Source: a virus. Taken from it: a stretch of DNA of 16,028 bases. The stretch lies in the UHGV virus genome UHGV-1911926; one strand, 5' to 3'. The position numbers and the translations under genes were made by a program. Positions 1-16,028 of this stretch are shown here, one piece after another (positions within the stretch are counted from its first letter, which is position 1; every line of letters begins with the position of its first letter). The notes under the pieces are model-generated. The model ran no database searches, had not been told where the DNA came from, and saw nothing but the letters and a program-made list of their open reading frames with translations.

Positions 1-512
1 CGACACCGGAAGCCGATTCAGCGTATGCGCTGAAAGCCGATTCGGGCGCTGTGCAGCAGGTGATGACCGCAAGGCCGGAGCAATCACACCAACTGCAGCA
101 GCCCGAAGCCGATTCCGCCATTCAGCGGGAAGCCGATCGGGTAGTCCCGGAAAACACCGGGCAGTCTGTGGGACGAGTGGATTATCCGGATGTGTTCGAA
201 CAGGTCTGGCGGGAGTACCCGTTGCGTGCTGGGGCAAACCCGAAGAAATCCGCTTTCAGTGCCTGGAAGGCCAGATTACGCGAGGGGGTGCCACCAGAGG
301 CCATGCTGGATGGCGTGAGGCGTTACGCAAGATACTTGGCGGCTACCGGGAAAACGGGAACGGAATTTGTTCAGCGAGCGACGACGTTTTTTGGACCGGA
401 CCGGAATTTTGAGAACCCCTGGTTGCTCCCGGTAAGCGGCACGAACAACCAGCGTTGTGTGAATCATATTTCTGAACCGGATAACGAAATTCCGCCGGGC
501 TTCAGGGGGTAA
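1..512 (+). CDS. Hypothetical phage early protein, 5'-partial (frame is open to window start); possibly a replication initiator C-terminal region given in-frame iteron-like repeats
   Basis: Reading frame of the 51..512 ORF has no stop back to position 3; stop at 510-512. Contains four GAAGCCGAT(T)C repeats. Family not recognised with certainty. Confidence 0.6.
   Translation, partial: TPEADSAYALKADSGAVQQVMTARPEQSHQLQQPEADSAIQREADRVVPENTGQSVGRVDYPDVFEQVWREYPLRAGANPKKSAFSAWKARLREGVPPEAMLDGVRRYARYLAATGKTGTEFVQRATTFFGPDRNFENPWLLPVSGTNNQRCVNHISEPDNEIPPGFRG
9..138. repeat. Four direct copies of GAAGCCGAT(T)C at 9-19, 33-43, 105-115, 129-138 (spacing 24/72/24 bp); iteron-like
   Basis: Seen directly in sequence; the 24-bp periodicity and position inside an early-region ORF resemble origin iterons embedded in lambdoid O-type genes, but could be a protein-level EADS/KADS repeat only. 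Confidence 0.4.
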
Positions 513-552
513 GTGTTAATTTCTGGTCATGAGGTAATTTTCAGGAGGGCTT

Positions 553-975
553 GTGGCAAAAGTTTTTACACAAGAAGAGCGGGAAAAAATTAAAGGACAG
601 GTTGTTGAACTCGTACGCCAGAGTGGGCGTGAGACGTTACGGCAACTGGAAGTCAAGACAGGTGCGACAAGATATCTGATGAGCGTTCTCGCAAGAGAGC
701 TGGTTGCCAGCGGCGATGTATGCAACTCTGGTTACGGGTTATTCCCGTCTGAACAGGCGCGTAAGGACTGGCAAAATGCCCGTAAAAAGCTCTCAAGGGC
801 AAAGCTGAAGAAACCATCTGCGGTTGATCCGGACCTTATCTGGTCATTACCTGACGGAGAAATACGTCGCTACGACAGGCGTCAGAACATAATCTGTCGC
901 GAGTGCCGGAAGAGTGAAGTTATGCAGCGCATATTGTCGTTTTATCAGGGTGATGTTCGGTATTTATTGAAGTGA
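553..975 (+). CDS. Hypothetical protein (140 aa), GTG start
   Basis: ORF with AGGAGGG at 543-549 just upstream of GTG 553; stop TGA 973-975. No family recognised. Confidence 0.6.
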   Translation: MAKVFTQEEREKIKGQVVELVRQSGRETLRQLEVKTGATRYLMSVLARELVASGDVCNSGYGLFPSEQARKDWQNARKKLSRAKLKKPSAVDPDLIWSLPDGEIRRYDRRQNIICRECRKSEVMQRILSFYQGDVRYLLK

Positions 976-1106
976 CGAGATTAAAGTGCATTAGTTCAGA
1001 TGCAAATTGACATTTTGTGGCACAGGGTAGAGCTAGCGTGGTTGTCCGCTTTGTGCCAATAGCGGACATTGCTGGCTCATGGTATGTTAGTTTAAGGAGG
1101 CAGGTT

Positions 1107-2129
1107 ATGCCCTGTATTTCGCTGTGGTATAATAGTTGCGCAATTGATACAAGGGAGCGTTACATCGTGAAAATTGTTTTCGAGGTTAATGGAAAGAAAG
1201 TTCCACTAAAATCTTTAAAATACATAAGCAAAAAAGATCAACTCGAAGTAATGAAAAACTGGTTCTTTGAAAACTTTGAAGATCCGGCAAATGCTTGTCC
1301 GTATGAAAGTAGAGAAGGTGGCTATGCTTACATATATGGCGGGCCGTATGATGCGAGCGAAGAACTACAATCCATCTTCGGTCAATATGTTAAATCTGAG
1401 TATATTGAGGAATTAGTAGATGAATTACAAACACAATGTTTTGACTGGTCTGGAAACTCAAATAATATAGATGATTGGTACGATGATGATATCTACGACG
1501 CTGTAACGTCTTCCGGTAATCCGTATTTAAAATTCATTGATAATATCGATAAAATAAAAAAACTTGCAAAAGATAAAACTGAACAACAGCAAAAAAACCA
1601 CTTGCTTAGTTTGCTCTACACGAATGTTATTACAGCTTTGGAAACGCTTTATGTTGAGCTATTCATTAATTCTATAGAGAAAGATGATGTCTACATAGCC
1701 AATTGTATAGAAAAAGGTAAGACTGAATTTAAAGTAAGCAAAGATATTGCTGCGTTGCCTTTCAAGGGTGAACCCATCGAGAAAATTAGGGGAGAGCTAA
1801 TCAGGTCAATCAAGGAACACTTGATCAGTGCAAGCTGGCATAGCACTAAAAAGGTAATCGACCGCTATGAAGCTACATTCGATATAAAAGTACAAAAAGA
1901 CTGTCCGATAGAAGCTATTGAATTGGCAACCCTCAATCGAAATCACTTAGTGCATCGTGGTGGAAAGGATAAAGAAGGGAACCTCGTAGTGATTACAGAC
2001 CAGGATCTTGAAACGCTGATTGAAAATGCATCGAACCTGGCAATTATGCTCTACAACAGTTTAAATGTAGCAACGAATAAAACCACCATTTTGCAACCAG
2101 ATGACAAACCGTTCATTCATGAATTTTAA
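1107..2129 (+). CDS. Cassette gene A: hypothetical protein with HEPN-like R-x4-H motif (NRNHLVHRGG) in the C-terminal region; putative RNase-type effector
   Basis: Long ORF (track 1017..2129). Preferred start ATG 1107 with AGGAGG at 1095-1100 (6-nt spacing); alternative GTG 1167 with GGGAG at 1153-1157. Strongly AT-rich compared with flanks. The R-x4-H motif matches the HEPN signature described by Anantharaman et al.; the assignment is inference, not a database hit. Confidence 0.6.
   Translation: MPCISLWYNSCAIDTRERYIVKIVFEVNGKKVPLKSLKYISKKDQLEVMKNWFFENFEDPANACPYESREGGYAYIYGGPYDASEELQSIFGQYVKSEYIEELVDELQTQCFDWSGNSNNIDDWYDDDIYDAVTSSGNPYLKFIDNIDKIKKLAKDKTEQQQKNHLLSLLYTNVITALETLYVELFINSIEKDDVYIANCIEKGKTEFKVSKDIAALPFKGEPIEKIRGELIRSIKEHLISASWHSTKKVIDRYEATFDIKVQKDCPIEAIELATLNRNHLVHRGGKDKEGNLVVITDQDLETLIENASNLAIMLYNSLNVATNKTTILQPDDKPFIHEF
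1125..1133 (+). promoter_or_regulatory. Extended -10-like element TGgTATAAT
   Basis: Exact TGnTATAAT match at 1125-1133, just upstream of the alternative GTG start (1167) of the AT-rich cassette; no good -35. Speculative. Confidence 0.25.
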
Positions 2130-2144
2130 TAGCGCAGGTCATAC

Positions 2145-3146
2145 ATGGATATTCGCACACGAAAGACAAAATTTTTAGAGTCGTTAGATTCAACTGAAGT
2201 GATACGCAAAGCAGTAAGTCTCGCTATAGATTGCATTATTGATAATCATAATAGTAATGAAGATACCCCCTTAGTTATTACCAGCTATGATGATCTCTGT
2301 AGAATCCAGGTGCTAAATTATGTACAGGAGTTTTGCGAAGCTGCATTCCCTGATATGGATGAATATTACTTTAGTCCTAACATACTTCGCATCAACGGCA
2401 AGACTAGTGAAGAAGCTTGTATTAACTTAATTAAACTCTTAAGAAGTACAAAAGGCATGCTATTCTGGTCCGATGCCCCATCGTGGTTCGCTAGCCTCCC
2501 CGACGGATTATTCCATGTTGTTAACATTGATCAAAAAATCGTTACTCGCGGCCTTAATAAGAAAAACTCTAAGCCGACAATAATCAATAAAGATTACAGT
2601 GTAGATACACTACTATCAGAGCTATTTTTGAATGGCGCACACATGGAGCAACCCAACGTACACAACGTTTCTGAGGGAAACATGAAGTTCTATGATGAAT
2701 GCCATGCTGGATTAATCAGACCAATACCCGCTCCAATAGGCGCGTCATACGATGAAGAGATCACAATTAATTCTCCAGATTGGCAAAAGCTCGCGTGTGT
2801 AGCTTTACGCCGCTATCAGTCGAAGGAATGTCATGACGGAATGCAATGGGATACAACCGATCATGGTTGGACTGATGTAATCGCGTATCCATTCGTCGAA
2901 GAAATACAATCAATGGATAATAGTGGTTATCGACAATGTTTAGTTGGGCTGGTCACAATAAACAATTCAAATGCAAATTCTCCGTACCTATCTACCGTTT
3001 GGATACATCCATTTTATCGCAGGAGAGGGTTATTAAGTAAGTTATGGCCAAAATTACAAGAGTTATATGGAAGTAACTTCGAAATTGAGCGACCTAATGA
3101 AAATATGAAAGCATTTCTGAAAAGTGCGAAACACGCAGATTACTAA
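2145..3146 (+). CDS. Cassette gene B: hypothetical protein (333 aa), co-oriented 15 bp downstream of gene A; weak GNAT-like segment (WIHPFYRRRGLL) near C-terminus
   Basis: ORF 2145..3146, same AT-rich composition as gene A, operon-like spacing. No confident family assignment; the GNAT resemblance is weak. Confidence 0.6.
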   Translation: MDIRTRKTKFLESLDSTEVIRKAVSLAIDCIIDNHNSNEDTPLVITSYDDLCRIQVLNYVQEFCEAAFPDMDEYYFSPNILRINGKTSEEACINLIKLLRSTKGMLFWSDAPSWFASLPDGLFHVVNIDQKIVTRGLNKKNSKPTIINKDYSVDTLLSELFLNGAHMEQPNVHNVSEGNMKFYDECHAGLIRPIPAPIGASYDEEITINSPDWQKLACVALRRYQSKECHDGMQWDTTDHGWTDVIAYPFVEEIQSMDNSGYRQCLVGLVTINNSNANSPYLSTVWIHPFYRRRGLLSKLWPKLQELYGSNFEIERPNENMKAFLKSAKHADY

Positions 3147-3257
3147 TTTATGAATCAGTCTGTGGAGTTAGGGTTGGTGTCAACAAGTAGGGTAAGAGCC
3201 TCAACGTGATGCTATGCCGACCTGCTCCCTGAGAATTCACACAGAAGGCTGCTAGCA

Positions 3258-3548
3258 ATGTCTGCAGATCGCTCAAAGCGGACTAGAAGGTTAGCTTGCG
3301 TCGGACTTGGCGTATTTAAAGAAGTGCTGGTGGTGACTGGTTGTTGTGTTCCATTTCTACAGAACAAAATCACAGAAACTATACCCAATAGTTATATTGA
3401 ATCAATGATGAGACAGCCTCATATTTATCAGAACTGGTGTACGTCCAATACAGGAGGTTGTCGTGCTGGTTCTCAAATGTGCGCTAGCTATTGCGGCTGT
3501 AATGGCAATTTATTGTCTTGCTGTTGTTCTTATGGATCGCCTTTCTGA
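3258..3548 (+). CDS. Hypothetical small cysteine-rich protein (96 aa; C-terminal ~45 aa carry 11 Cys)
   Basis: ORF with GAAGG at 3244-3249 and ATG 3258. Could be spurious; no family recognised. Confidence 0.3.
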   Translation: MSADRSKRTRRLACVGLGVFKEVLVVTGCCVPFLQNKITETIPNSYIESMMRQPHIYQNWCTSNTGGCRAGSQMCASYCGCNGNLLSCCCSYGSPF

Positions 3549-3606
3549 TTGATTTTATATTGGCGAGGTGACGGGAGTTAAGTAGAATTGCTGCGGGTGC
3601 TTGAGG

Positions 3607-3642
3607 CTATCTGCCTCAGGCATGAACACCAAAGGCAGATAG
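3607..3642 (+). other. Perfect 10-bp inverted repeat (CTATCTGCCT / AGGCAGATAG) with 16-nt loop, upstream of hok
   Basis: Seen directly; no U-tract follows, so a regulatory or mRNA-folding element rather than a terminator. Confidence 0.4.
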
Positions 3643-3763
3643 AGAAAAGCCCCAGTTAATATTACGCGTCCTGCAAGACGCTTAACATTAATCTGAGGCT
3701 CAATCTATGAACGGCAAATCTAGGTTAGCCTCTTACGTGCCGAAAGGCAAGGAGAAGCAGGCT

Positions 3764-3919
3764 ATGAAGCAGCAAAAGGCGATGTTAATCGCCCTGATCG
3801 TCATCTGTTTAACCGTCATAGTGACGGCACTGGTAACGAGGAAAGACCTCTGCGAGGTACGAATCCGAACCGGCCAGACGGAGGTCGCTGTCTTCACAGT
3901 TTACGAACCTGAGGAGTAA
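3764..3919 (+). CDS. hokD: Hok/Gef-family type I toxin (51 aa; MKQQKAMLIALIVICLTVIVTALVTRKDLCEVRIRTGQTEVAVFTVYEPEE), HokD/RelF-like
   Basis: Protein is near-identical to my recollection of E. coli HokD/RelF (single transmembrane helix, conserved C-E-V/R-T-G-Q-T-E-V-A motif). The ORF track shows an in-frame upstream extension from 3707; ATG 3764 is preceded by AAGGAG at 3745-3750. Confidence 0.85.
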   Translation: MKQQKAMLIALIVICLTVIVTALVTRKDLCEVRIRTGQTEVAVFTVYEPEE

Positions 3920-3926
3920 GAGACCC

Positions 3927-3948
3927 GGCGAGGGAGAAATCCCTCGCC
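3927..3948 (+). other. 9-bp stem hairpin with GAAA loop (GGCGAGGGA-GAAA-TCCCTCGCC) immediately 3' of hok
   Basis: Seen directly; hok mRNAs are known to carry extensive 3' structure (fold-back elements). Confidence 0.4.
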
Positions 3949-3987
3949 ACCTCTGATGTGTCAGGCATCCTCAACGCACCCGCACGT

Positions 3988-4016
3988 AACCCGCTTCGGC
4001 GGGTTTTGTTTTTTCC
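3988..4016 (+). terminator. Intrinsic terminator (CCCGC-TTCG-GCGGG followed by TTTTGTTTTTTCC)
   Basis: GC stem with tetraloop and U-tract downstream of hok. Confidence 0.65.
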
Positions 4017-4086
4017 TGGCATTCTGGTTTACAATTCGCACGCCAGCCTGAACAACTGGCACCTGCTGCGCCAGCAGAGACAACCG

Positions 4087-4365
4087 ATGGCGCACGATAC
4101 CAAATTACACAATTCTGATGATTCTGCCGTCTTTGCCAGCAGGCACGGGCGGCGTTCCCGCACTTTCAAATCTGACTGGTTCCAGCATCCCCCATGCACT
4201 GAAGAACAGGCCGAGTGGCTAATTCAGTGCTACCGCAGACACGGATACGAGATTAAGAAAGCCCTCAGCCTCGATTATCGTCACTGGATAATCTCCGTCA
4301 GGCTTCCTTACTCCGAACGATCACCGCGTCCGTCCCGCACATTCCAGCAACGCATCTGGAGGTAA
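4087..4365 (+). CDS. Hypothetical phage protein (92 aa); positionally equivalent to rem in the Qin hokD-rem-ydfU-quuQ block
   Basis: Track ORF 3958..4365 begins inside the hok terminator; the first in-frame ATG after the terminator is 4087. The stop at 4363-4365 abuts the next gene's RBS. Start is uncertain. Confidence 0.4.
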   Translation: MAHDTKLHNSDDSAVFASRHGRRSRTFKSDWFQHPPCTEEQAEWLIQCYRRHGYEIKKALSLDYRHWIISVRLPYSERSPRPSRTFQQRIWR

Positions 4366-4366
4366 C

Positions 4367-5496
4367 GTGCGAGTATTACTTCGACCTGTTCTGGTACCGG
4401 AACTCGGGCTGGTGATCGTTAAGCCGGGCCGTGAATCCATGCCGGTATTCCACAATACCCGGGTACTGGTGGAGCCGGAACCGAAAAGCATGCGTAATCT
4501 GCCGTCCGGGGTTGTTCCTGCCGTTCGCCAGCCGCTAGTGGAAGACAAAACATTGCTGCCGTTTTTCAGTAACGCACGGGTGATTCGTGCTGCTGGTGGT
4601 GCTGGTGCATTGTCTGACTGGCTGTTGCGCCATATTAAATCCTGCCAGTGGCCACACGGCGATTATCATCACAGCGAAACCGTCATTCACCGTTATGGTA
4701 CCGGCGCAATGGTGTTGTGCTGGCACTGCGACAACCAGCTGCGTGACCAGACATCCGAATCACTCGAGCAACTTGCTCATCAAAACCTGTCAGCATGGAT
4801 GATTGACGTCATACTCCATGCAATGAATGGCTCGCAGGAACGGGAATTATCGCTGGCTGAATTATCCTGGTGTGCGGTCCGCAATCAGGTGGCGGACGCG
4901 CTACCGGAAGCGGTATTACGTCGTTCGCTGGGGTTGCGTGCGGAAAAAATCCGCTCAATGTACCGTGAAAGCGACATCGTACCGGGAGAGCAGACCGCCA
5001 CCAGCATACTGAAGCAGCGCACAAAAAATCTTGCGCCGCTGCCTCACGCCCACCAGCAAAACCCGCCACAGGAAGAGNNNNNNNNNNNNNNNNNNNNNNN
5101 NNNNNNNNNNNNNNNNNNNNNNNNNNNNNNNNNNNNNNNNNNNNNNNNNNNNNNNNNNNNNNNGTCAGCATTGCCGTTGATCCTGAGTCTCCGGAATCTT
5201 TCATGAAACGACCTAAACGTCGCCGCTGGGTTAACGAGAAATACACACGCTGGGTGAAGACACAGCCGTGTGCGTGTTGTGGTAAGCCAGCCGACGATCC
5301 CCATCACCTGATTGGTCATGGTCAGGGCGGAATGGGGACAAAATCTCACGATATTTTCACGCTACCGCTGTGTCGGGAGCATCACAACGAGCTTCATGCG
5401 GATCCTCTGGCGTTCGAAGAAAAGCATGGTTCTCAGGTTGATTTAATTTTTCGTTTTCTTGATCACGCCTTTGCAACTGGCGTGCTTGGGTAAAAG
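4367..5496 (+). CDS. DUF968-like (YdfU-like) prophage protein with C-terminal Cys/His cluster (CACCGK...HHLIGH...CREHHNELH); interrupted by an assembly gap
   Basis: GTG 4367 preceded by GGAGG at 4356-4360. Open frame to the N-run; a second open frame resumes right after the gap and runs to 5496. The frame differs across the gap (gap length presumably arbitrary). Family call from memory of Qin ydfU context. Confidence 0.65.
5078..5163. other. Assembly gap (86 N)
   Basis: Run of N in the sequence. Confidence 1.
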
Positions 5497-5505
5497 AGGT
5501 GACTG

Positions 5506-5880
5506 ATGCTCATAGATTTGGTTTTACCTTACCCGCCGACGGTGAACACTTACTGGCGACGCCGTGGCAGCACATATTTTATCTCGGAGGAGGGAAAGCG
5601 TTATCGCCGGGCTGTGGCGCTTATTGTTCGCCAGCAGCGGCTGAAATTAAGCCTGTCCGGAAGGCTGGCGATAAAGGTGATTGCAGAGCCACCGGATAAG
5701 CGTCGTCGCGACCTGGACAATATCCTGAAAGCACCGCTGGATGCGCTGACGCATGCGGGAGTGTTAATGGACGATGAGCAGTTTGATGAAATCAATATCG
5801 TTCGTGGTCAGCCAGTATCTGGTGGACGTATGGGGGTGAAGATTTACCCCATAATGCATGAAGAGCAGGTCAAAAAATGA
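5506..5880 (+). CDS. rusA: RusA-family Holliday junction resolvase
   Basis: 124-aa product with the PDKRRRDLDNILKAPLDALTHAG motif resembling E. coli RusA ([23 protein letters not shown]); AGAGG RBS at 5494-5498. Confidence 0.85.
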   Translation: MLIDLVLPYPPTVNTYWRRRGSTYFISEEGKRYRRAVALIVRQQRLKLSLSGRLAIKVIAEPPDKRRRDLDNILKAPLDALTHAGVLMDDEQFDEINIVRGQPVSGGRMGVKIYPIMHEEQVKK

Positions 5881-6698
5881 AACTGGAAGATTTACCGAAA
5901 TACTACTCCCCAAAATCCCCTGGCCTGACCGATGCATCGGCCTCAACGTCAAAAGATGCGCTGAGTATCACTGATGTGATGGCCGCGCAGGGCATGACAC
6001 AGAATCGGGCTGAGATGGGGTTTTCTGCGTTCCTGGGGAAAATGGGCATCAGTATGAATGACAGGGCGCGGGCAACAGAATTACTGGCAGATTATGCACT
6101 CAGTCGGTGCGATCGTGTGGCGGCGTTGAGAAAACTTCCGGCAGAAATAAAACCGGTAGTGATGCGCATTATGGCTTCGTATGCGTTTGAAGATTATGCC
6201 CGTAGCGCGGCGAGCAAAAAACAGTGCCCTTGCTGTCACGGAAAAAAATTTATTGAAAGCGAGGTTTTTACAAACAAGATCCAGTATCCGGATGGTAAGC
6301 CACCAGTGTGGGCAAAGTGCACAAAAGGCGTGTATCCGTCTTACTGGGAAGAATGGAAAAAAGTCAGGGAGGTGGTAAAAGTTGCCTGTCCGGAGTGTGG
6401 CGGAAAGGGTGAGGTTTCCACCGCCTGTAAGGATTGCCGTGGGCGTGGTGTCGCCATTCATCGTGAAGAGTCGGTAAAACGTGGTATGCCTGTTATCAGA
6501 GATTGCCAGCGTTGTGGTGGTCGTGGCTGTGAAAGGCTGCCATCAACGGAGGCATTTAATGCCATATGCAAAGTGACGAGTGCTATCACGCTTGATACGT
6601 GGAAAAAATCAGTGAAACGCTTTTACGATACGTTGGTGGTTCGGTTTGACATTGAAGAGGCATGGGCGGAGCGGCAGTTAAAGAGGGTAACGCGATAG
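5877..6698 (+). CDS. Putative late-gene antiterminator Q (QuuQ/phage-82-like), with four CxxC-x-G-type zinc-finger motifs
   Basis: Start overlaps the rusA stop (ATGA). Position between rusA and a promoter/terminator pair is the canonical Q location. Motifs CPCCHGKKF, CPECGGKGE, CKDCRGRGV, CQRCGGRGC. Family assignment is inference. Confidence 0.5.
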   Translation: MKLEDLPKYYSPKSPGLTDASASTSKDALSITDVMAAQGMTQNRAEMGFSAFLGKMGISMNDRARATELLADYALSRCDRVAALRKLPAEIKPVVMRIMASYAFEDYARSAASKKQCPCCHGKKFIESEVFTNKIQYPDGKPPVWAKCTKGVYPSYWEEWKKVREVVKVACPECGGKGEVSTACKDCRGRGVAIHREESVKRGMPVIRDCQRCGGRGCERLPSTEAFNAICKVTSAITLDTWKKSVKRFYDTLVVRFDIEEAWAERQLKRVTR

Positions 6699-6703
6699 TG
6701 TTG

Positions 6704-6731
6704 TTGATTTTTCCCGAATCTGTGGTAAATT
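6704..6731 (+). promoter_or_regulatory. Candidate late promoter (pR'-like): TTGATT, 16-nt spacer, TGgTAAATT
   Basis: Sigma70-like hexamers with extended -10 TG, immediately downstream of the Q-like gene. Confidence 0.3.
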
Positions 6732-6780
6732 TGCTCTAACGATGGGCGTTTTATGCCTGACGTTAGAAGATTTTTTACAC

Positions 6781-6803
6781 CCCGCCGCCTGGCGGGTTTT
6801 TTA
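6781..6803 (+). terminator. Intrinsic terminator (CCCGCC-GCCT-GGCGGG + TTTTTT), tR'-like
   Basis: Perfect 6-bp GC stem with U-tract about 50 nt downstream of the candidate late promoter; homologous copy at 11298..11319. Confidence 0.6.
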
Positions 6804-6922
6804 TGACTGAAATCGCGTCAGTACAGTAAACGCGCTGGTGGCGGTGAATACCTGTCTTTCAGCTTGCTGGCTTTTTCGACAAGAGTTATTGGTGTGTCAC
6901 GTTAACCGGAAAAGGAAAAGAC

Positions 6923-7120
6923 ATGCTAAAACAGCAGGATATGACAGAAACCGCCAGAGTGGTGTTTAATGAATTAAGCGTTACCGACCCGGCGACAGTC
7001 GGGGAGATAGCGCAGAATACTTACCTTTCACGCGAACGCTGCCAGTTAATACTGACTCAGCTGGTTATGGCGGGTCTGGCAGACTATCAGTTCGGTTGTT
7101 ACAGACGCCTTCCGCAGTGA
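6923..7120 (+). CDS. Small hypothetical protein (65 aa), possible winged-helix/HTH; paralog of 11442..11645
   Basis: AAGGAAAAG RBS upstream of ATG 6923. Shares MLKQQDMTETA...RCQLILTQLV.AGLA with the second copy. Stop codon lies in the loop of a terminator hairpin. Confidence 0.5.
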   Translation: MLKQQDMTETARVVFNELSVTDPATVGEIAQNTYLSRERCQLILTQLVMAGLADYQFGCYRRLPQ

Positions 7121-7131
7121 AGGCTTTTTTA
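7107..7131 (+). terminator. Hairpin GCCTTC-CGCAGT-GAAGGC + TTTTTT overlapping the stop of the small ORF
   Basis: Seen directly; weaker equivalent at 11636..11656 in the second copy. Confidence 0.45.
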
Positions 7132-7147
7132 TTTGTGGTAAATGGGC

Positions 7148-7178
7148 GGCTGGTGGGTGTTAGGGGCACCCACCAGCC
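7148..7178 (+). other. Perfect 12-bp GC-rich inverted repeat (GGCTGGTGGGTG / CACCCACCAGCC) with 7-nt loop in the methyltransferase leader
   Basis: Seen directly; a diverged copy (two mismatches in the 3' arm) at 11673..11703. Confidence 0.5.
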
Positions 7179-7270
7179 ATCTGCTCATGCGTCCGGATCA
7201 CAAGCAAACCTCAGGCCCACTGCTTTGCGCAAAAGCAGAATGAGCCTATCAGAGACAGGCTTAATGATCC

Positions 7271-8320
7271 ATGCTTAATACTGTAAAAATATCCAGTTGT
7301 GAGTTAATCAACGCCGACTGCCTGGAATTTATCCGGTCGTTACCCGAAAATTCTGTTGACCTGATAGTCACGGACCCGCCGTACTTTAAAGTGAAGCCTG
7401 AGGGCTGGGATAACCAGTGGAAGGGCGACGATGATTACCTGAAGTGGCTGGACCAGTGTCTGGCGCAGTTCTGGCGGGTGCTGAAACCTGCCGGAAGTCT
7501 TTACCTGTTCTGTGGTCATCGCCTGGCATCTGATATCGAAATCATGATGCGTGAACGCTTCAGTGTGCTGAACCATATTATCTGGGCGAAGCCGTCCGGA
7601 CGCTGGAACGGATGCAACAAGGAAAGCCTGCGGGCGTATTTCCCCGCCACAGAGCGCATTCTGTTCGCGGAACATTATCAGGGGCCGTATCGTCCGAAAG
7701 ATGCCGGGTATGCGGCGAAGGGCAGTGCACTGAAACAGCATGTGATGGCCCCGCTGATTTCTTACTTTCGTGATGCGCGCGCGGCCCTGGGGATAACGGC
7801 AAAACAGATTGCAGATGCCACAGGAAAGAAAAACATGGTGTCGCACTGGTTCAGTGCCAGTCAGTGGCAGCTACCGAATGAAAGCGATTATCTGAAATTA
7901 CAGGCGCTGTTTGCCCGGGTGGCAGAAGAGAAGCATCGGCGTGGTGAACTGGAAAAGCTCCACCACCAGCTGGTGGATACGTATACCTCACTGAACCGGC
8001 AGTATGCGGAGCTGCTGAGTGAATATAAACATCTGCGGCGGTATTTTGGCGTGACGGTGCAGGTGCCGTATACCGATGTGTGGACGCATAAACCGGTGCA
8101 GTTCTATCCCGGGAAACATCCGTGCGAAAAACCGGCAGAAATGCTGCAGCAGATAATCAGCGCAAGTAGCCGTCCTGGTGATCTGGTTGCGGATTTTTTC
8201 ATGGGGTCGGGTTCAACGGTAAAAGCGGCGATGGCACTGGGGCGTCGTGCGATTGGTGTTGAGCTGGAGACCGGACGTTTTGAGCAGACAGTCAGGGAAG
8301 TTCAGGATTTAATCGTTTGA
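7271..8320 (+). CDS. DNA methyltransferase, beta-class amino-MTase (DPPY motif IV near the N-terminus, FFMGSGST motif I near the C-terminus); likely N6-adenine (or N4-cytosine)
   Basis: 349-aa ORF with [10 protein letters not shown] and [10 protein letters not shown] motifs; motif order IV then I defines the beta class. Confidence 0.85.
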   Translation: MLNTVKISSCELINADCLEFIRSLPENSVDLIVTDPPYFKVKPEGWDNQWKGDDDYLKWLDQCLAQFWRVLKPAGSLYLFCGHRLASDIEIMMRERFSVLNHIIWAKPSGRWNGCNKESLRAYFPATERILFAEHYQGPYRPKDAGYAAKGSALKQHVMAPLISYFRDARAALGITAKQIADATGKKNMVSHWFSASQWQLPNESDYLKLQALFARVAEEKHRRGELEKLHHQLVDTYTSLNRQYAELLSEYKHLRRYFGVTVQVPYTDVWTHKPVQFYPGKHPCEKPAEMLQQIISASSRPGDLVADFFMGSGSTVKAAMALGRRAIGVELETGRFEQTVREVQDLIV

Positions 8321-8369
8321 AACGGATGAGATTGCAGAATTAATTACGCACCATTATTATTCTGCTCCC

Positions 8370-8445
8370 GGCCCTTTAGCTCAGTGGTGAGAGCGAGCGA
8401 CTCATAATCGCCAGGTCGCTGGTTCAAATCCAGCAAGGGCCACCA
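8370..8445 (+). tRNA. tRNA with CAU anticodon (Ile2-lysidine or Met), ileZ-like
   Basis: Manual fold: acceptor GGCCCTT/AAGGGCC, D-arm GCTC..GAGC, anticodon loop CTCATAA, T-arm GCTGG-TTCAAAT-CCAGC, discriminator A, encoded CCA. Confidence 0.8.
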
Positions 8446-8452
8446 TCACATA

Positions 8453-8529
8453 CCGCCATTAGCTCATCAGGAAAGAGCGCCAGCCTTCGAAGCTGGTTGC
8501 GCGGAGTTCGGGTCCCCGAAGGCGGTCCA
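8453..8529 (+). tRNA. tRNA-Arg (UCG anticodon), atypical
   Basis: Manual fold: anticodon stem CCAGC/GCTGG with loop CTTCGAA, D-arm GCTC..GAGC. Acceptor has one A-A mismatch, T-stem one A-C mismatch, T-loop TTCGGGT lacks the usual A58. Encoded CCA. Confidence 0.55.
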
Positions 8530-8542
8530 TTATCTGTATCCT

Positions 8543-8619
8543 GCGTTGTTAGCTCAGCCGGACAGAGCAATTGCCTTCTAAGCAATCGGTCACTGGTTCG
8601 AATCCAGTACAACGCGCCA
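8543..8619 (+). tRNA. tRNA-Arg (UCU anticodon), argO-like
   Basis: Manual fold: acceptor GCGTTGT/ACAACGC, anticodon stem ATTGC/GCAAT with loop CTTCTAA, T-arm ACTGG-TTCGAAT-CCAGT, discriminator G, encoded CCA. Confidence 0.85.
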
Positions 8620-8664
8620 CACTTATTTTCCCTGGCTCGCTTTTGCGGGCTTTTTTTTAAATGT

Positions 8665-8879
8665 CTCACAATTCAGGCGGTTGACTGTTGTCTGGTTTGC
8701 GGGGAGTTTGTTAAAAGAAACTGGCATGGTGAATCCCCCTGTGCGGAGGGGCAATCAGCGAGTAGGTATATGGGATAATCGCGGATTCAGGTGCTGGTAC
8801 TGAATTCACCGGGAGGCACCCGGCACCATGCAATGGCACATAGCGCCACTCTCCAGCCCCTCTCCGGAGGGGCTTTTCT
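8665..8879 (+). repeat. Non-coding module A (CTCACAATTCAG..TTGAC..GCATGGTGAATCCCCCTG.GCGGAGGGGC..-10-like..CACCGGGAGGCACCCGGCACCATG..terminator CCCCTC-TCCG-GAGGGG+CTTTTCT at 8857-8879)
   Basis: Homologous to module B at 9133..9366; conserved hairpins and terminator, no conserved ORF. Confidence 0.5.
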
Positions 8880-9068
8880 GTGCCGGATACATCACAGTTT
8901 CTGGAACCTTAGGTACTACAGTATCAGTCAGGGTGCTATATTTTCAGATGTGATGAAAGCCTGTCAGCAGGCAGGGCGTATCGGAAATGACCCAGTAGAG
9001 AAAACGTTGACTCAGATACCGGTGCTGAGTTACCGGGAAACCGGCATCACATGACCGCTATCCTTCCA

Positions 9069-9096
9069 GGCCCATCCGCTCCGGTGGGCCTTTTTA
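9069..9096 (+). terminator. Intrinsic terminator (GGCCCA-loop-TGGGCC + TTTTTA)
   Basis: Seen directly between the two non-coding modules. Confidence 0.5.
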
Positions 9097-9132
9097 CTGC
9101 AGAAAACAGGTTCCCCGTTAAATGCTATGTTG

Positions 9133-9366
9133 CTCACAATTCAGTAAGTTGACAGTTGCCTGTCAGACTGGGCATTTGTTAAAAAAATTTCGCATGGTGA
9201 ATCCCCCTGAGCGGAGGGGCGACTGGTGACGGTATAATCTCTGATTATCAAAACGAGAATGACGCGGGTTTAGTGGCACCGGGCTGAACTCACCGGGAGG
9301 CACCCGGCACCATGTGCATGATGATACAGATACGCGGCTTTAGCCCCTCTCCGGAGGGGTTTTCTT
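9133..9366 (+). repeat. Non-coding module B, paralog of module A; contains TTGACA (9149-9154), consensus TATAAT (9233-9238) and terminator CCCCTC-TCCG-GAGGGG+TTTTCTT (9344-9366)
   Basis: Alignable by eye to 8665..8879. Confidence 0.5.
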
Positions 9367-9372
9367 GTGGGC

Positions 9373-9401
9373 AAAAAAAGCCCGCGCTGGGAGACGCGGG
9401 C
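9373..9401 (-). terminator. Minus-strand intrinsic terminator (A-run on the plus strand followed by GCCCGCG-loop-CGCGGGC)
   Basis: Read on the minus strand this is a GC hairpin followed by a T-tract; sits back-to-back with the plus-strand terminator at 9344-9366. Confidence 0.45.
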
Positions 9402-9594
9402 GGCAAGGAATAAACAATAAAACGTGAAGTAATATTTCAGCTGGCGAATAATACCCCATAGTAATCACTCTGCGCAACTGCGCGGTCTTTTTCGAATTGC
9501 GGGCTGTCGTCTCTCTTCTGCCATTGTCCTGTAACTTCCGGACTTCAGCCCGCTCCTTATTTTACTCACAATATTATCCCGGCCGGGAGGATTC

Positions 9595-9822
9595 ATGGCA
9601 TTTAAACACTATGACGTGGTCAGGGCGGTATCGCCGTCAGACCTTGCGAAACGACTGACACAAAAACTGAAGGAGGGCTGGCAGCCGTTTGGTAGTCCGG
9701 TGGCCATAACCCCTTATACCCTGATGCAGGCGATTGCAGCAGAAGGTGATGTGGTGGTCAGTGGTGCAACTGAGCCGGATTGGTACTACGTCATCGTACT
9801 GGCCCGGCATTCCAGGCCATAA
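9595..9822 (+). CDS. Small hypothetical phage protein (75 aa)
   Basis: GGGAGG at 9582-9587 with ATG 9595; no family recognised. Confidence 0.5.
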   Translation: MAFKHYDVVRAVSPSDLAKRLTQKLKEGWQPFGSPVAITPYTLMQAIAAEGDVVVSGATEPDWYYVIVLARHSRP

Positions 9823-10090
9823 AAGACAGTCTGGCAGTGGGACTAAATGCACTGACGCTGATGGATATTACCAAAAATGTAACGTATGGCGTTGAGATAG
9901 AAAGTCTGGCGCTGGAGATAAATGCACCGGCATCATCATAAAAAGTGAGCCAGTCAAATGGAAGGTATCGTTAAACTCACCGGTAGTGTCAGTGGGTCGT
10001 CTGAGACGCTTGCATGAGTTATCAGAGCCATCAGTAGTTAACTGGTGGCTTTTTTATTGTTTTCAGCTTCCGGATAACGGGAGACGGGGT

Positions 10091-10290
10091 ATGGACCAGA
10101 TGGAAAAAATCACAACAGGTGTGTCATACACCACGTCAGCGGTGGGAACGGGCTACTGGTTCCTGCAGTTGCTGGACAGGGTTTCCCCGTCTCAGTGGGC
10201 GGCAATAGGCGTGCTGGGGAGTCTGCTGTTTGGGCTGCTGACATATCTGACTAACCTGTATTTCAAAATCAGAGAGGACCGTCGTAAGGC
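10091..10290 (+). CDS. Class II (S21-like) pinholin, 3'-truncated by the assembly gap
   Basis: [66 protein letters not shown] is paralogous to the holin at 12916..13131; ATG 10091 preceded by GGGAGACGGGG. The reading frame runs into the N-run. Confidence 0.6.
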
Positions 10291-10300
10291 NNNNNNNNNN
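10291..10300. other. Assembly gap (10 N), likely a scaffold join of unknown true length
   Basis: Run of N; the flanking genes are both truncated and not in a biologically expected order. Confidence 1.
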
Positions 10301-10640
10301 ACGTTGGGGGGCATGGGTGGCAAATAATCACGAGGATGTCACCTGGTCGTCTATTGCTGCAGGATTTAAAGGACTAATCCCTTCAAAAGTAAAATCCCGC
10401 CCGCAATGTTGTGACGATGATGCGATGATCATTTGTGGGTGCATGGCTCGCCTGAAAAAGAACAACAGCGATTTGCACGATTTATTAGTGGATTATTATG
10501 TAGGTGGTATGACGTTTATGGCGCTTGCCCGTAAACATGGGCGTTCTGATTGCTGGGTTGGGCGTTTATTGCAAAAGGCTGAAGGTGTAGTTGATGGCAT
10601 GTTAATGATGTTAGAAATTGAGCTAGAGATGGATCGTTAG
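10301..10640 (+). CDS. Antiterminator Q, QuuD-like, 5'-truncated by the gap
   Basis: Frame is open from the first base after the N-run ([53 protein letters not shown]...); matches my recollection of DLP12 QuuD. The track start at 10317 (GTG) is internal. Confidence 0.65.
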
Positions 10641-10682
10641 AAGACCTCTTATTGAGGGGGTAATTGAATCAGTTTAATGTGT

Positions 10683-10712
10683 GGGGAGTCGATTTATTCT
10701 CCCCATTTTATT
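10683..10712 (+). terminator. Hairpin GGGGAG-loop-CTCCCC followed by ATTTTATTT
   Basis: Seen directly between the Q fragment and the convergent lipoprotein gene. Confidence 0.4.
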
Positions 10713-10724
10713 TAATTAATTTAC

Positions 10725-11171
10725 TTAAGGTTTTAATTCATCAAGACGTTGTTGGATAGTGTTTTTGCTTGCGTTGTCTGTTATAGCCATTTGTTGTACT
10801 TGCCCCATTGCCATTTGAGTTTCCATCCACATATCGGCCCACACTTTTGTATCGTTATTAACTTGAGCGATAGTAAATCTGACTTTTGATACCGGGGTTG
10901 TTGAATAGGCATTGCCGATTAACATTTGTCCAAAAACAGCAGACCCGCCTTCCAGTTCTTTACCACATATAACACTGCTGTTATCAGCGTTGTAAATTAT
11001 CAACCCTCTACTATTGCAGTAATTCACAAGGGCATCTTTGACTTTATCTTTTGTCGTATTTTGATAAACCCCCTCAGGTTTTCCTGATTGAGTTTTTTTT
11101 ATCAATGGTACGGAAGAAGTACAACCTGAAATGATAGTTGCGCTAAGTAATAGTACAGTCATTTTATTCAT
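10725..11171 (-). CDS. Putative lipoprotein (148 aa; signal peptide with lipobox IISGC), AT-rich moron
   Basis: Minus-strand ORF with N-terminal MNKMTVLLLSATIISGC; lower GC than surrounding phage genes. Confidence 0.65.
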   Translation of the reverse strand: MNKMTVLLLSATIISGCTSSVPLIKKTQSGKPEGVYQNTTKDKVKDALVNYCNSRGLIIYNADNSSVICGKELEGGSAVFGQMLIGNAYSTTPVSKVRFTIAQVNNDTKVWADMWMETQMAMGQVQQMAITDNASKNTIQQRLDELKP

Positions 11172-11297
11172 GTTTCTTATCCATTGTTAAGGGCATACCT
11201 ACACAATTATTTTTATTGGAGATGAATAATCAACCGTTTACAATCGTAAAAAATCAAATATGCTGTTAAGAGTGGTTACTTCGCCACACAACTTAAA

Positions 11298-11319
11298 CCC
11301 GCCGCTGAGCGGTTTTTTT
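11298..11319 (+). terminator. Intrinsic terminator (GCCGC-TGA-GCGGT + TTTTTTT), homolog of 6781..6803
   Basis: Seen directly; the downstream ~120 bp is alignable to 6800..6922. Confidence 0.5.
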
Positions 11320-11441
11320 GTACCTGTAAACTTGGTGCAGTACAGTAAACACGCTGGTGGTCGTGAATACTGACCTTTTATCTTGCTGGCTTTTTAGACA
11401 AGAGTTATTGGTATGTCATGTTAACCAGAAGGGAAAAAGAC

Positions 11442-11645
11442 ATGCTAAAACAGCAAGATATGACAGAAACCGCCGCCGCAGTCCTTCATTTCTTACCTGC
11501 TGACAAGTGGGTAACGCCACGCATGATGACGAGAACTACCGGAGTAAGCGAAGCCCGGTGCCAGTTAATACTGACTCAGTTAGTTCTGGCGGGTCTGGCG
11601 AAGGATAACGGCGGATACGGGAATAAATTCAGACGCTGCCAGTAA
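11442..11645 (+). CDS. Small hypothetical protein, paralog of 6923..7120
   Basis: Start chosen at the second ATG (MLKQQDMTETA) by analogy with copy 1; RBS AGAAGGGAAAAAG. Stop lies in a hairpin loop as in copy 1. Confidence 0.5.
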   Translation: MLKQQDMTETAAAVLHFLPADKWVTPRMMTRTTGVSEARCQLILTQLVLAGLAKDNGGYGNKFRRCQ

Positions 11646-11795
11646 TGGCGGTTTCCTGCTGTGAAAATGGGCGGCTGGTGGGTGTTGGTAGCACCTGCCA
11701 GCCATTCGCTCATGCTTACTGGTCACAAGCGAACCACGGCCCACTGCTTTAGCGCAAAAGCAGAGTGAGCCTACCAGAGTTACGCTTACTGATCC

Positions 11796-12848
11796 ATGAA
11801 AAATACTGTAAAAATAAACAGTGTTGATTTAATCAACGCTGATTGCCTGCATTTTATTCAGTCCCTGCCTGATGATTCCATTGACCTGATTGTTACCGAT
11901 CCGCCGTACTTCAAGGTGAAACCCAACGGCTGGGACAATCAGTGGAAAGGGGACGAAGATTACCTTAAGTGGCTGGACCACTGTCTGGCCCAGTTCTGGC
12001 GGGTGTTAAAACCTGCCGGAAGCCTTTACCTGTTCTGTGGGCATCGCCTGGCATCTGATATTGAGATCATGATGCGTGAACGTTTCAACGTGCTTAACCA
12101 TATCATCTGGGCGAAGCCGTCCGGACGTTGGAATGGGTGTAATAAAGAAAGTCTGCGCGCATATTTTCCTGCCACAGAGCGCGTTCTGTTTGCTGAACAT
12201 TACCAGGGGCCATATCGCGGCAAAAGTGACGGCTATGCGGCAAAAGAAAGGGAACTCAAACAGCACATAATGGCACCGCTGATATCGTATTTCAGGGATG
12301 CTCGTGCCGAACTGGGTATAACGGCAAAACAAATTGCCGAAGCCACAGGTAAGAAAAATATGGTTTCCCACTGGTTTGGTGCCAGTCAGTGGCAGTTGCC
12401 GAATGAGGCTGACTATCGGAAGTTACAGGCACTGTTTTCCCGTATAGCGGCAGAGAAGTTTCAGGAACAACAACTGGAACAACCACACCACCAGCTGGTG
12501 GCATCTTATGATTCACTGAATCGCAAATATTCTGAATTGCTGGATGAGTTTAAATCTCTCCGGCGCTATTTCTCCGTATCAGTCTCCGTGCCTTATACCG
12601 ATGTCTGGATGCATAAACCCGTTCAGTTCTACCCGGGTAAACATCCGTGTGAGAAACCGGCGGATATGCTCAGGCAAATAATCAATGCCAGTAGTCGACC
12701 TGGTGATCTGGTTGCTGATTTTTTTATGGGATCCGGTTCCACAATAAAAGCAGCAATGGCGCTGGGGCGTCGGGCCTTAGGTGTTGAGCTTGAGTCAGAG
12801 CGGTTTAACCAGACAGTGAAAGAGATAAACGAGCTGGTGGGGAAATAA
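11796..12848 (+). CDS. DNA methyltransferase, beta-class amino-MTase, paralog of 7271..8320
   Basis: DPPYF and FFMGSGST motifs; high identity to copy 1 with a divergent central segment (roughly residues 215-260). Confidence 0.85.
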
Positions 12849-12915
12849 TCTGGTGGCCACGTCAGGTGGCCTTTTTATTTCCATTACACAGCACCCGCAT
12901 CTGCGAGGTGGGGTT

Positions 12916-13131
12916 ATGAAATCCATGGATAAGTTAACAACGGGTGTCGCCTATGGCACCTCCGCAGGCAGTGCTGGCTACTGGTTTTTACAGTGGCTTG
13001 ATCAGGTCAGTCCGTCACAGTGGGCTGCGATTGGTGTACTGGGGAGTCTGGTTCTGGGCTTCCTGACTTATCTGACAAATCTGTACTTCAAAATCAGAGA
13101 AGACAAGCGTAAGGCTGCACGGGGAGAGTAA
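12916..13131 (+). CDS. S: Class II holin (phage 21 S21-type pinholin) with dual-start motif MKSMDK
   Basis: [71 protein letters not shown] matches my recollection of S21; RBS GAGGTGGGG. The track start 12853 is an upstream extension. Confidence 0.85.
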
Positions 13132-13135
13132 TTCA

Positions 13136-13480
13136 ATGACTCAAAACTATGAACTGATTGTGAAAGGGATCCGCAATTTTGAGAATAAAGTTACGGTAAC
13201 TTTAGCGTTACGGGACAAAAAACGCTTTGACGGTGAAATTTTTGACCTGGACATCTCGCTGGACCGTGTTGAAGGTGCTGCGCTGGAGTTTTATGAGGCA
13301 GCGGCCAGAAGGAGCATCAGACAGGTCTTCCTGGATGTCGCTGCCGGGTTATGTGAAGGGGATGAGCAGTCGCCGGAAAAGCGCCCCGTAATTTTAGAGG
13401 CGCAGAATGTATGGATAACCTACAAAGGAAAGCTACCGGGAAGGATTACTGGTTCCCTGAAGACTCCGCCGAAATGGTAG
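13136..13480 (+). CDS. Hypothetical protein (114 aa) between holin and endolysin
   Basis: GGGGAGAG RBS with ATG 13136; no family recognised. Confidence 0.5.
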   Translation: MTQNYELIVKGIRNFENKVTVTLALRDKKRFDGEIFDLDISLDRVEGAALEFYEAAARRSIRQVFLDVAAGLCEGDEQSPEKRPVILEAQNVWITYKGKLPGRITGSLKTPPKW

Positions 13481-13718
13481 TTTTGCCAGCATAATTTTCT
13501 TCCAGCAATGCCGCCAGCCACTTGAAAGAATTTTGTTGTTCCTGGGACCATTTGGGGTTGCGTGATTCAAAATGAATGGATGCCAGCGTTGGCAGCATTT
13601 GCTCCCTGGGAATTGATAAGGCCAGATGTGAAAATGCAACAGTGAGGGCATTTACATCATCCCGAAGCCTGGAAATGCAGTCGAGCAACTCCTGTAGAGA
13701 AATGGTGCTATTGTCCAT
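13446..13718 (-). CDS. Hypothetical protein (90 aa), convergent with 13136..13480
   Basis: Minus-strand ORF with AAGAGGA RBS 7 nt upstream of its ATG (plus-strand 13716-13718); 3' ends of the two genes overlap by 35 bp. Confidence 0.5.
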   Translation of the reverse strand: MDNSTISLQELLDCISRLRDDVNALTVAFSHLALSIPREQMLPTLASIHFESRNPKWSQEQQNSFKWLAALLEENYAGKTTISAESSGNQ

Positions 13719-13823
13719 AAATAATCCTCTTGATTGTCTTTACCTTTTCCCCGCCTGATTCAACAGGCCGGGACAGATAAACATATCCAGGGTTCAGAAA
13801 CCGATAAATCCTGATAAATATCC

Positions 13824-14357
13824 ATGAACGCAAAAATCAAATACGGCCTGTCAGCTGCAGTTCTGGCGCTGATTGGAGCAGGCGCATCAGCTCCTCAGAT
13901 ACTTGACCAGTTTCTGGATGAAAAAGAGGGTAACCACACTACGGCATACCGCGATGGTTCCGGCAACTGGACCATCTGTCGGGGGGCCACGATGGTGGAT
14001 GGAAAACCCGTTTTTCCCGGTATGAAACTGTCGAAGGAAAAATGCGACCAGGTCAACGCCATTGAGCGTGATAAGGCGCTGGCATGGGTGGAGAAAAACA
14101 TCAAAGTGCCATTGAGCGAACCCCAGAAAGCGGGGATCGCGTCATTCTGTCCGTACAACATTGGTCCCGGTAAGTGTTTCCCGTCGACGTTTTATAAACG
14201 AATTAATGCAGGTGATCGCAGGGGAGCGTGTGAGGCGATTCGCTGGTGGATTAAGGACGGTGGCAGAGACTGCCGTATTCGTTCAAACAACTGCTACGGT
14301 CAGGTATCCCGTCGTGACCAGGAGAGCGCGCTGGCGTGCTGGGGTATCGACAGATAA
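13824..14357 (+). CDS. R: Phage lysozyme R (T4-lysozyme-like GH24 muramidase) with N-terminal SAR (signal-anchor-release) domain
   Basis: Catalytic E-x8-D-x5-T triad (EGNHTTAYRDGSGNWT); weakly hydrophobic Gly/Ala-rich N-terminal segment YGLSAAVLALIGAGASA. Confidence 0.85.
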   Translation: MNAKIKYGLSAAVLALIGAGASAPQILDQFLDEKEGNHTTAYRDGSGNWTICRGATMVDGKPVFPGMKLSKEKCDQVNAIERDKALAWVEKNIKVPLSEPQKAGIASFCPYNIGPGKCFPSTFYKRINAGDRRGACEAIRWWIKDGGRDCRIRSNNCYGQVSRRDQESALACWGIDR

Positions 14358-14448
14358 GCAGAATATTTTGCTGAAAAATAAGGCATGGCCACGCGGGCGG
14401 ATAACATGAAATCCTGCGAAGTGGCGAAACGTAAGTGAATAAAAGTAA

Positions 14449-14486
14449 AAACCCCGTTTGTTGGCACCAAGCGGGGTTTTGTGTTT
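14449..14486 (+). terminator. Terminator-like hairpin (AAACCCCG-15 nt loop-CGGGGTTT, then TGTGTTTCC)
   Basis: Seen directly between R and Rz; the long loop lowers confidence. Confidence 0.35.
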
Positions 14487-14555
14487 CCTGACTCCGGAAA
14501 AGTCAAAGGAGAAAGTGTGTTTGATTTTAGCAAACTGATTCGGGAGATTCGAGTG

Positions 14556-14654
14556 ATGGCTGAAAAATTATCCACCTGGAAGTTCATTCTTATCTGGCTG
14601 GTGTTTGTGATTATGGCCTCTGGTTATTTCATCGGTCAGATACGCTGGTGGTGA
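14556..14654 (+). CDS. Possible small hydrophobic protein (32 aa; [32 protein letters not shown])
   Basis: Not in the ORF track (under 60 aa). GGGAG at 14542-14546, ATG 14556, stop TGA 14652-14654 immediately before the Rz start. Confidence 0.3.
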
Positions 14655-14655
14655 A

Positions 14656-15120
14656 ATGAACCGCGTACTGTGCGTGGTCATCATTGCCCTGCTGGTGGCC
14701 TGTGGTGCGCTTAGTCTGGGGCTGAATCATTACCGTGATAACGCCATTACCTACAAAGCCCAGCGCGACAAAAATGTCAGAGAACTGAAGCTGGCGAACG
14801 CGGCAATTACTGACATGCAGATGCGTCAGCGTGATGTTGCTGCGCTCGATGCAAAATACACGAAGGAGTTAGCTGATGCGAAAGCTGAAAATGATGCTCT
14901 GCGTGATGATGTTGCCGCTGGTCGTCGTCGGTTGCACATCAAAGCAGTCTGTCAGTCAGTGCGTGAAGCCACCACCGCCTCCGGCGTGGATAATGCAGCC
15001 TCCCCCCGACTGGCAGACACCGCTGAACGGGATTATTTCACCCTCAGAGCGCGACTGATAATAATGCAAAAACAACTTGAAGGGGCACAGCTATACATTC
15101 GAGAGCAATGCCTCAGATAA
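14656..15120 (+). CDS. Rz: Rz i-spanin (inner-membrane spanin subunit), lambda-Rz-like
   Basis: Near-identical to my recollection of lambda Rz over most of its length ([17 protein letters not shown]...[45 protein letters not shown]). Confidence 0.9.
14876..15058 (+). CDS. Rz1: Rz1 o-spanin lipoprotein, embedded in the +1 frame of Rz
   Basis: [23 protein letters not shown]... with lipobox VVGC and a Pro-rich segment; AGGAG RBS upstream; classic embedded architecture. Confidence 0.85.
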
Positions 15121-15427
15121 AAACCGGCCAAGGATAATCCGCTGAAGATTCGCCGGTGGCTAAAGTGTGCCAAGAGTTCAATTTACGCAATTACTCCTGT
15201 CGATGCTATGTACCGTCTTTGTGAAGTCAATGGATACCTGATTTATTTCTGTGCGCTGTATCGTCGCTGTACTCTTGCATTAATTATGACTGTAGCCTGA
15301 CGGGGAACTCCTTCTGCACAAGTGTGGGGGAATAATCAAAAACGATGCACACCGGGGTTACCGGGTACACATATTTCATCATGCCAGCGAGTCCGGTTCT
15401 GGCACGGAAGAAACCGGACGTTATGAT

Positions 15428-15838
15428 TTAGTGCGGAAATATTTGTGTAGTGTTCTGAATGTTCTCAGTAAAGAGTAATGAATTATCAAAGGTATAGTAA
15501 TACCTTTTGTTTTCGTGGATATTTGTAATCCATCTGAAAACCCCTGCTGTAGCAAGATTTTTCCTGTATTCGTAAAATGATAACTCTCCTGATTTGAATC
15601 CTTTTAAGGTGGCTTCTATAAGGCATTTATTTTTTGAAAATCTTACATTTACAACCTTACCCTGTCCTTTTATTAAAACCGTATTATCGTTTTCAAGAAC
15701 AAGATGAATATTCTCTGTGGCTAAATAGTAAATGTAATGTGAGACATTGTGACGTTTTAGTTCAGAATAAAACCAGTGATAGTTTAAATTATTTCGCACT
15801 TTATCGAATATTTGTTTAAAAATGGCAATCTGAGCCAT
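15428..15838 (-). CDS. Hypothetical protein (136 aa), AT-rich moron convergent with the lysis cassette
   Basis: Minus-strand ORF; start chosen at the second ATG (MAQIAIF...) because GGAAGG lies 7 nt upstream; the track start is 15853. No family recognised. Confidence 0.5.
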
Positions 15839-16028
15839 TGTAGTACCTTCCATGTGATATGAGGGGGGGTAGTCTGCACGATTATCTAAATTGCTTCAAT
15901 CTGGTCTGACCTGTTTTCTGAGCAATTCAGTAATGTCACTCTTTTCTTTGTTTGCTTCAGGCGAAACTCTTTTTTCTGAGCACAGTCTCCGGCGGCAGGC
16001 TTCAATGACCCAGGCTGAGAAATTCCCG

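Follow-up and report, generated by a model that had tools for sequence, protein, structure and literature searches.

The junction between a holin gene and an antiterminator Q gene in UHGV-1911926 is, at a probability that we put at about 0.92 from sequence comparison, a product of short-read assembly and scaffolding and not of the genome. The window, that is, the whole stretch of 16,028 nucleotides that was analysed, consists largely of a UTI89-type lambdoid prophage (hereafter prophage A, or A), which lies at ~1.40 Mb in the ST95 strains UTI89, S88, IHE3034, NU14 and ATCC 11775. Its holin gene is interrupted by a short run of Ns followed by 2,816 nt of a second lambdoid prophage (prophage B, or B), which in closed genomes adjoins yfdP/yfdQ, and after this block the sequence of prophage A resumes. 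The genes concerned, one class II holin, one Q of the QuuD type and one of the QuuQ type, fall into known families as ordinary representatives, and the junction is almost certainly not a real biological feature. The features on which the argument turns are listed in the table.

Table. Features of the window that bear on the holin-to-Q junction, with their positions, strand and supporting evidence.
Feature	Position	Strand	Evidence
Prophage A DUF968 gene: second scaffold gap, 86 N	5078..5163	.	inside prophage A DUF968 gene
Q antiterminator of prophage A itself (273 aa; QuuQ/YdfT type)	5877..6698	+	PF03589, E=2e-49
holin_A, class II holin gene (P21 S-type) of prophage A, nt 1-200 of 216	10091..10290	+	PF04971; 100% identity to UTI89
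10-N scaffold gap, unsequenced	10291..10300	.	N run between holin_A nt 1-200 and Q_B nt 27-366
Prophage B QuuD-type antiterminator Q gene (Q_B; role predicted), nt 27-366 of 366	10301..10640	+	PF06530; KGu016 identity
Prophage B block: truncated Q, 148-aa reverse-strand ORF, small ORF, N6/N4 DNA methyltransferase, holin_B nt 1-201	10301..13116	+	100% to closed genomes
holin_B, complete 71-codon gene	12916..13131	+	PF04971, E=3.1e-35; aligned with holin_A
A/B identical or near-identical zone: 90-nt exact repeat, 3 SNPs, 58-nt exact repeat	13117..13278	+	mismatch maps; FDAARGOS_1300 repeats
Return to prophage A ('A_right'): 3' part of ydfR, lysozyme, Rz-type lysis gene, DUF1398 gene	13221..16028	+	UTI89, 100%

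The sequence-only reading had placed a holin lacking its C-terminal residues against a Q fragment across a 10-N gap, and both the gap and the truncated holin were confirmed. The 66 residues translated from holin_A (66 of 71 codons) match positions 1-62 of the 64-position Pfam profile for phage P21 holin S (PF04971; E=3e-32), score 110.9 bits against a curated cut-off of 26 for class II holins, and share 77% identity with K-12 EssQ (71 residues) over its residues 1-66. The intact gene measures 216 nt in closed genomes, and the window copy, of 200 nt, is without the last 16; it is 100% identical to positions 11892-12091 of the UTI89 locus (L003), where the gene extends to 12107. Position 10290, its last base, is also the end of the contig that we call A_left. 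On the other side of the gap, Q_B is in frame with a Q protein; its PF06530 match (E=1.8e-45, 154.1 bits against a cut-off of 26) begins at position 10 of the profile and runs to its end at 118, and it shares 84% identity with residues 10-120 of K-12 QuuD. By family it is therefore a QuuD-type Q, for which a role in antitermination is predicted. The stretch is 100% identical to positions 8001-8340 of prophage B in KGu016 (L002; CDS 7975-8340). Its earlier identification as a QuuD-like Q without a 5' end thus holds, but the description of the frame as resuming mid-protein does not: the gene has 366 nt in closed genomes, the window copy starts at nt 27, and just 26 nt are absent.

Runs of N occur exactly twice in the window, one of 86 and one of 10. 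The longer of the two takes the place of 6 nt (ACGGTG; positions 6459-6464 of the prophage A locus L138) in UTI89, in FDAARGOS_1300 and in L006 and L011, which are two independent ENA metagenome scaffolds with prophage A. Its length is 80 nt off, and as a consequence the DUF968 gene in which it sits (4367-5493) looks split and frameshifted. Because 86 Ns stand for 6 nt in all of these relatives, the lengths of N runs in this scaffold are estimates of the scaffolder and not measured gaps. No A/B repeat of at least 25 nt was found at the 86-N break. Several assemblers (Velvet manual) and GenBank submissions customarily use ten Ns as the shortest gap.

Comparison with the UTI89 prophage gave an identity of 99.96% for window positions 1-5077, 100% for 5164-10290 and 100% once more for 13221-16028, and identity with L006 and L011 is regained already from 13117. 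The sequence-only reading did not include this return to prophage A 2.8 kb on (at 13117 or 13221, depending on the reference), which makes the B piece an insert in a colinear A. In L003, L006, L011 and L138 holin_A is intact and directly followed by ydfR. When the insert is excised and a single G is supplied (window 5164-10290, G, window 13117-16028), the resulting 8,040 nt are an exact substring of both L006 and L011. The insert, composed of the 10 Ns and the 2,816 nt of B, enters at a G/T SNP located 15 nt upstream of the stop codon of the holin; the final 15 nt of a holin gene are present in a single copy in the window, attached to holin_B, and holin_A needs the same 15 nt. Against UTI89 the B block replaces 105 nt of prophage A, which differ from B at four sites only, and against L006 and L011 it replaces a single base; the statement that 105 nt of prophage A are missing, which we had considered, accordingly holds against the closed genomes (four differences), whereas one base differs against the two metagenome scaffolds. 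The repaired junction (query 9700-10290, G, 13117-13700) is covered over at least 80% of its length in 1,199 of 5,426 closed E. coli genomes, and in 128 of these the identity is at least 99%.

The B block, for its part, is 100% identical in 12 closed genomes, and this identity extends over window positions 10301-13278 in the prophage B of KGu016 and 11 other closed genomes; the phages PhiR40_1 and PhiR55_1 share its Q region at 100% identity. In L001, L002, L014 and L139 a DUF968 gene immediately precedes the complete Q of prophage B. In the closed genome FDAARGOS_1300 prophage A lies at 5.03-5.05 Mb and prophage B at 1.82-1.84 Mb, and this genome matches the A portion of the window at 99.98% and the B block at 100%. 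The earlier proposal, that through a scaffold gap the window joins late regions of two related prophages, or a repeat that was collapsed, is supported: each flank is 100% identical to a different prophage, and in FDAARGOS_1300 the two lie ~2 Mb apart. Moreover, an independent NCBI draft (GCA_014420405.1; L020) holds the B block as a stand-alone contig of 2,895 nt, which equals window 10312-13206 at 100% and stops exactly at the end of a 90-nt repeat shared by the two prophages. This contig came to light through proteins that would be expected only from a broken assembly, namely a Q of 107 aa read from an internal start and a 96-aa ORF for the C-terminal end of DUF968; the scaffold of the window itself was not among the matches. 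Between Q_B and the late genes the block carries an ORF of 148 aa on the reverse strand (10725-11171) that is annotated as hypothetical in all closed genomes and gave no Pfam match; it may be a moron-like insert in the interval between Q and the late operon.

Prophage A has a Q gene of its own, and the assignment of a QuuQ-like Q to 5877-6698 is borne out by its PF03589 match and by 40% identity over its full length to the YdfT/QuuQ of the K-12 Qin prophage; the protein is unrelated to Q_B. The late regions at 6781-8292 and 11298-12817 are 77% identical and the two holins 73%, so that the earlier claim of a duplicated late region after the gap is right as paralogy and wrong as copies. Three other observations concern the part of prophage A upstream of holin_A. 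A cluster of three tRNA genes lies between the methylase and the holin (8370-8619), with the anticodons CAT (Met), TCG (Arg) and TCT (Arg) according to ARAGORN; the RefSeq label for the CAT tRNA is tRNA-Ile. An internal direct repeat (8665-8879 and 9133-9365) is 70% identical, and a DUF1737 pseudogene remnant is found at 9595-9822, where related phages have an esterase of ~650 aa with the arrangement DUF1737-SASA-DUF6645.

The position of the break, which the sequence-only reading likewise did not relate to repeats, coincides with the edge of the sequence that A and B have in common. Between the two prophage loci fetched from FDAARGOS_1300, exact A/B repeats of at least 25 nt are found only from directly after the G/T SNP onward: the first four (90 nt at A 11593-11682, then 58, 27 and 104 nt) span the last 15 nt of the holin into ydfR, and four shorter repeats (25-33 nt) follow downstream of these. 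A_left ends at L138 position 11591, 1 nt before the SNP, and the 90-nt repeat begins at 11593, which puts the contig break 1-2 nt ahead of the first exact repeat; simple de Bruijn-graph models would have the A contig end at or after the SNP base, and the end seen is 1 nt before it. The joint is thus unsequenced, its flanks come from different loci, the break falls at a repeat boundary and excision restores a colinear sequence, a combination that points to an assembly artefact at a repeat.

The course of events that we consider most plausible begins with an ST95/UTI89-like source strain that would have carried two lambdoid prophages at different chromosomal sites, with the order Q (QuuQ-type), methylase, three tRNAs, holin_A, ydfR and lysozyme in A, and DUF968, Q (QuuD-type), methylase, holin_B and ydfR in B. 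The A and B paths would merge in the assembly graph over the stretch that begins at the 3' end of the holin and reaches into ydfR. What follows the gap is a contig that starts in B, crosses the common stretch and passes into the downstream sequence of prophage A, and a scaffolder guided by read pairs or by a reference would have set A_left before that contig and written the minimum gap of 10 N; A_left would have been placed in series with it because the contig holds A_right, the true neighbour of A_left. The outcome would be that a 2.8-kb arm of B separates holin_A from its own 3' end. Most likely both genes are whole in the cell, holin_A with ydfR after it and Q_B with DUF968 before it: nucleotide 200 of holin_A would continue into GGCACGGGGAGAGTAA-ydfR, and prophage B would read DUF968_B-ATGCGTGATATTCAAATGGTTCTTGA, leading into ACGTTGGGG of Q_B.

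There are two ways in which the contig after the gap could have come to pass from B to A, and under both of them the holin-to-Q joint is artefactual. The switch takes place inside the 58-nt repeat (13221-13278), the last B-only SNP being at 13220 and the first A-only SNP at 13279, within ydfR (13117-13480), and the haplotype of this gene is either that of a chimeric contig or that of a rare natural recombinant. The YdfR protein was tried as a marker of the B/A hybrid and rejected as not diagnostic, since the SNPs are silent and the protein is present in 665 blocks; the hybrid was tracked by a degenerate DNA pattern in its place. At 100% identity the 301-nt hybrid haplotype (13100-13400) is absent from the 5,426 closed E. 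coli genomes (best match 99.3%), and over 12600-13900 no closed genome has the B-to-A hybrid (best match 95.5%). Among the 162 closed genomes with the B block none continues into A_right, and all holin_B loci continue as B. Because no B-block genome enters A_right and no hybrid haplotype is found at 100%, we lean towards the view that prophage B has a different right-hand side in the cell and that the contig is a chimera formed at the 58-nt repeat.

The other possibility is that the second prophage is a natural recombinant, in which the early and Q region of B is joined within ydfR to a lysis and structural region of A type, so that the sequence from 13117 or 13221 onward existed in two copies and was collapsed by the assembler. 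In its favour, the contig continues unbroken across 13279, the point of divergence between A and B, and natural recombination around the ydfR stretch is common (38 holin_A loci, for example, have non-A sequence downstream). Against it stand the same counts, namely the 162 B-block genomes, the missing hybrid haplotype and the uniform continuation of holin_B loci as B, and we regard a collapse of this kind as the less likely of the two. The exact position of the switch is somewhat blurred, as the three SNPs of B type at 13207, 13212 and 13220 (G, G and A) are also present in the prophage A of L006 (10060-10155) and L011 (10060-10155), a combination that no closed genome shows in an A context. 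Genuine gene conversion may have produced them, or else bubble popping where a sample contained both prophages.

A quite different explanation of the joint, that contigs without any linkage were merely concatenated by N spacers and that their adjacency carries no information, is suggested by the practice of some pipelines and databases of joining contigs by short fixed runs of N. The two runs in the window are unequal (86 and 10), though, all three pieces stand in the true order and orientation of prophage A, and the contig after the 10-N gap includes the genuine neighbour of A_left, which would rarely be so at random; arbitrary concatenation is therefore improbable.

With its query (9000-11700, coverage of at least 80%) the scaffolded junction occurs in none of the 5,426 closed E. 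coli genomes and in none of 50,697 phage records, and a junction pattern with a spacer of 0-30 nt gave no match among GTDB species representatives or metagenome contigs. The comparison with closed genomes of the lineage that had been proposed as a check consequently returned the junction in none of them, each flank being part of a different prophage. A genuine rearrangement would be expected as a continuous novel joint that recurs in independent assemblies, and what is seen here is Ns at the joint and zero occurrences. If illegitimate recombination between two resident prophages had nonetheless fused holin_A at nt ~200 to Q_B at nt ~27, giving two Q and late modules in tandem, a pinholin-type holin with an altered C-terminus would be fused to, or abut, a 5'-truncated Q gene; a run of 10 Ns could nominally mean a gap of less than 10 nt, sequence alone forbids nothing, and lambdoid lysis modules are so strongly mosaic in nature that rarity alone is no ground to dismiss recombinants around ydfR, but no gap would be expected in the assembly of a novel and unique junction, the break is at the edge of the A/B repeats, the B insert replaces one base of an otherwise perfectly colinear prophage A, and the joint is absent from all four collections, so that we hold this reading to be very unlikely. 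NCBIfam offered no informative names for the Q, holin and YdfR proteins, and a scan for promoters and terminators around the gap found nothing bearing on the junction.

Read literally, the scaffold has holin and Q genes that are both truncated, a DUF968 gene that is split and two late regions in one prophage. Artefact is the most likely origin of all four, and gene calls made on the scaffold, counts of pseudogenes, prophage limits and inferences of module shuffling would hence be wrong. The value of the present case lies mainly in data hygiene, and it offers a quick test for a suspect joint: excise the suspect contig and check whether the flanks then match closed relatives exactly. Among public drafts, L130 (at 9994), L131 (at 9937) and L132 (at 9956) have 1-N gaps directly before a 3' fragment of DUF968, and in L130 the series RusA, Q and 71-aa ORF is repeated on both sides of the 1-N gap; all three look like prophage scaffolding artefacts of the kind described here.

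Compared with known systems, the window is like the UTI89-type prophage in that positions 1-10290 and 13221-16028 are colinear with it at 99.96-100%, and unlike it in having two N gaps and a foreign B block. It resembles prophage B of KGu016 and FDAARGOS_1300 in its 100% identity over 10301-13278, but in those genomes Q is complete after DUF968 and the sequence past ydfR is B-specific, whereas in the window it is of A type. The genes have kin in the cryptic prophages of K-12 (quuD of DLP12 at 84%, ydfT/quuQ at 40% and essQ of Qin at 77%); the order there is Q and then holin, in agreement with the earlier remark that Q normally precedes the holin and that the reverse is unexpected, and the holin-then-Q order of the window is without counterpart. 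In the draft genome of E. coli NA114, apparent 'rearrangements' of prophages and islands proved to be misassemblies (PMC4134206). As in that case, contigs end at prophage repeats, different prophages are placed in series and the arrangement is absent from closed relatives; unlike the genome-scale misplacement of islands in NA114, the error in the window is local and consists of one 2.8-kb arm inserted at a single base.
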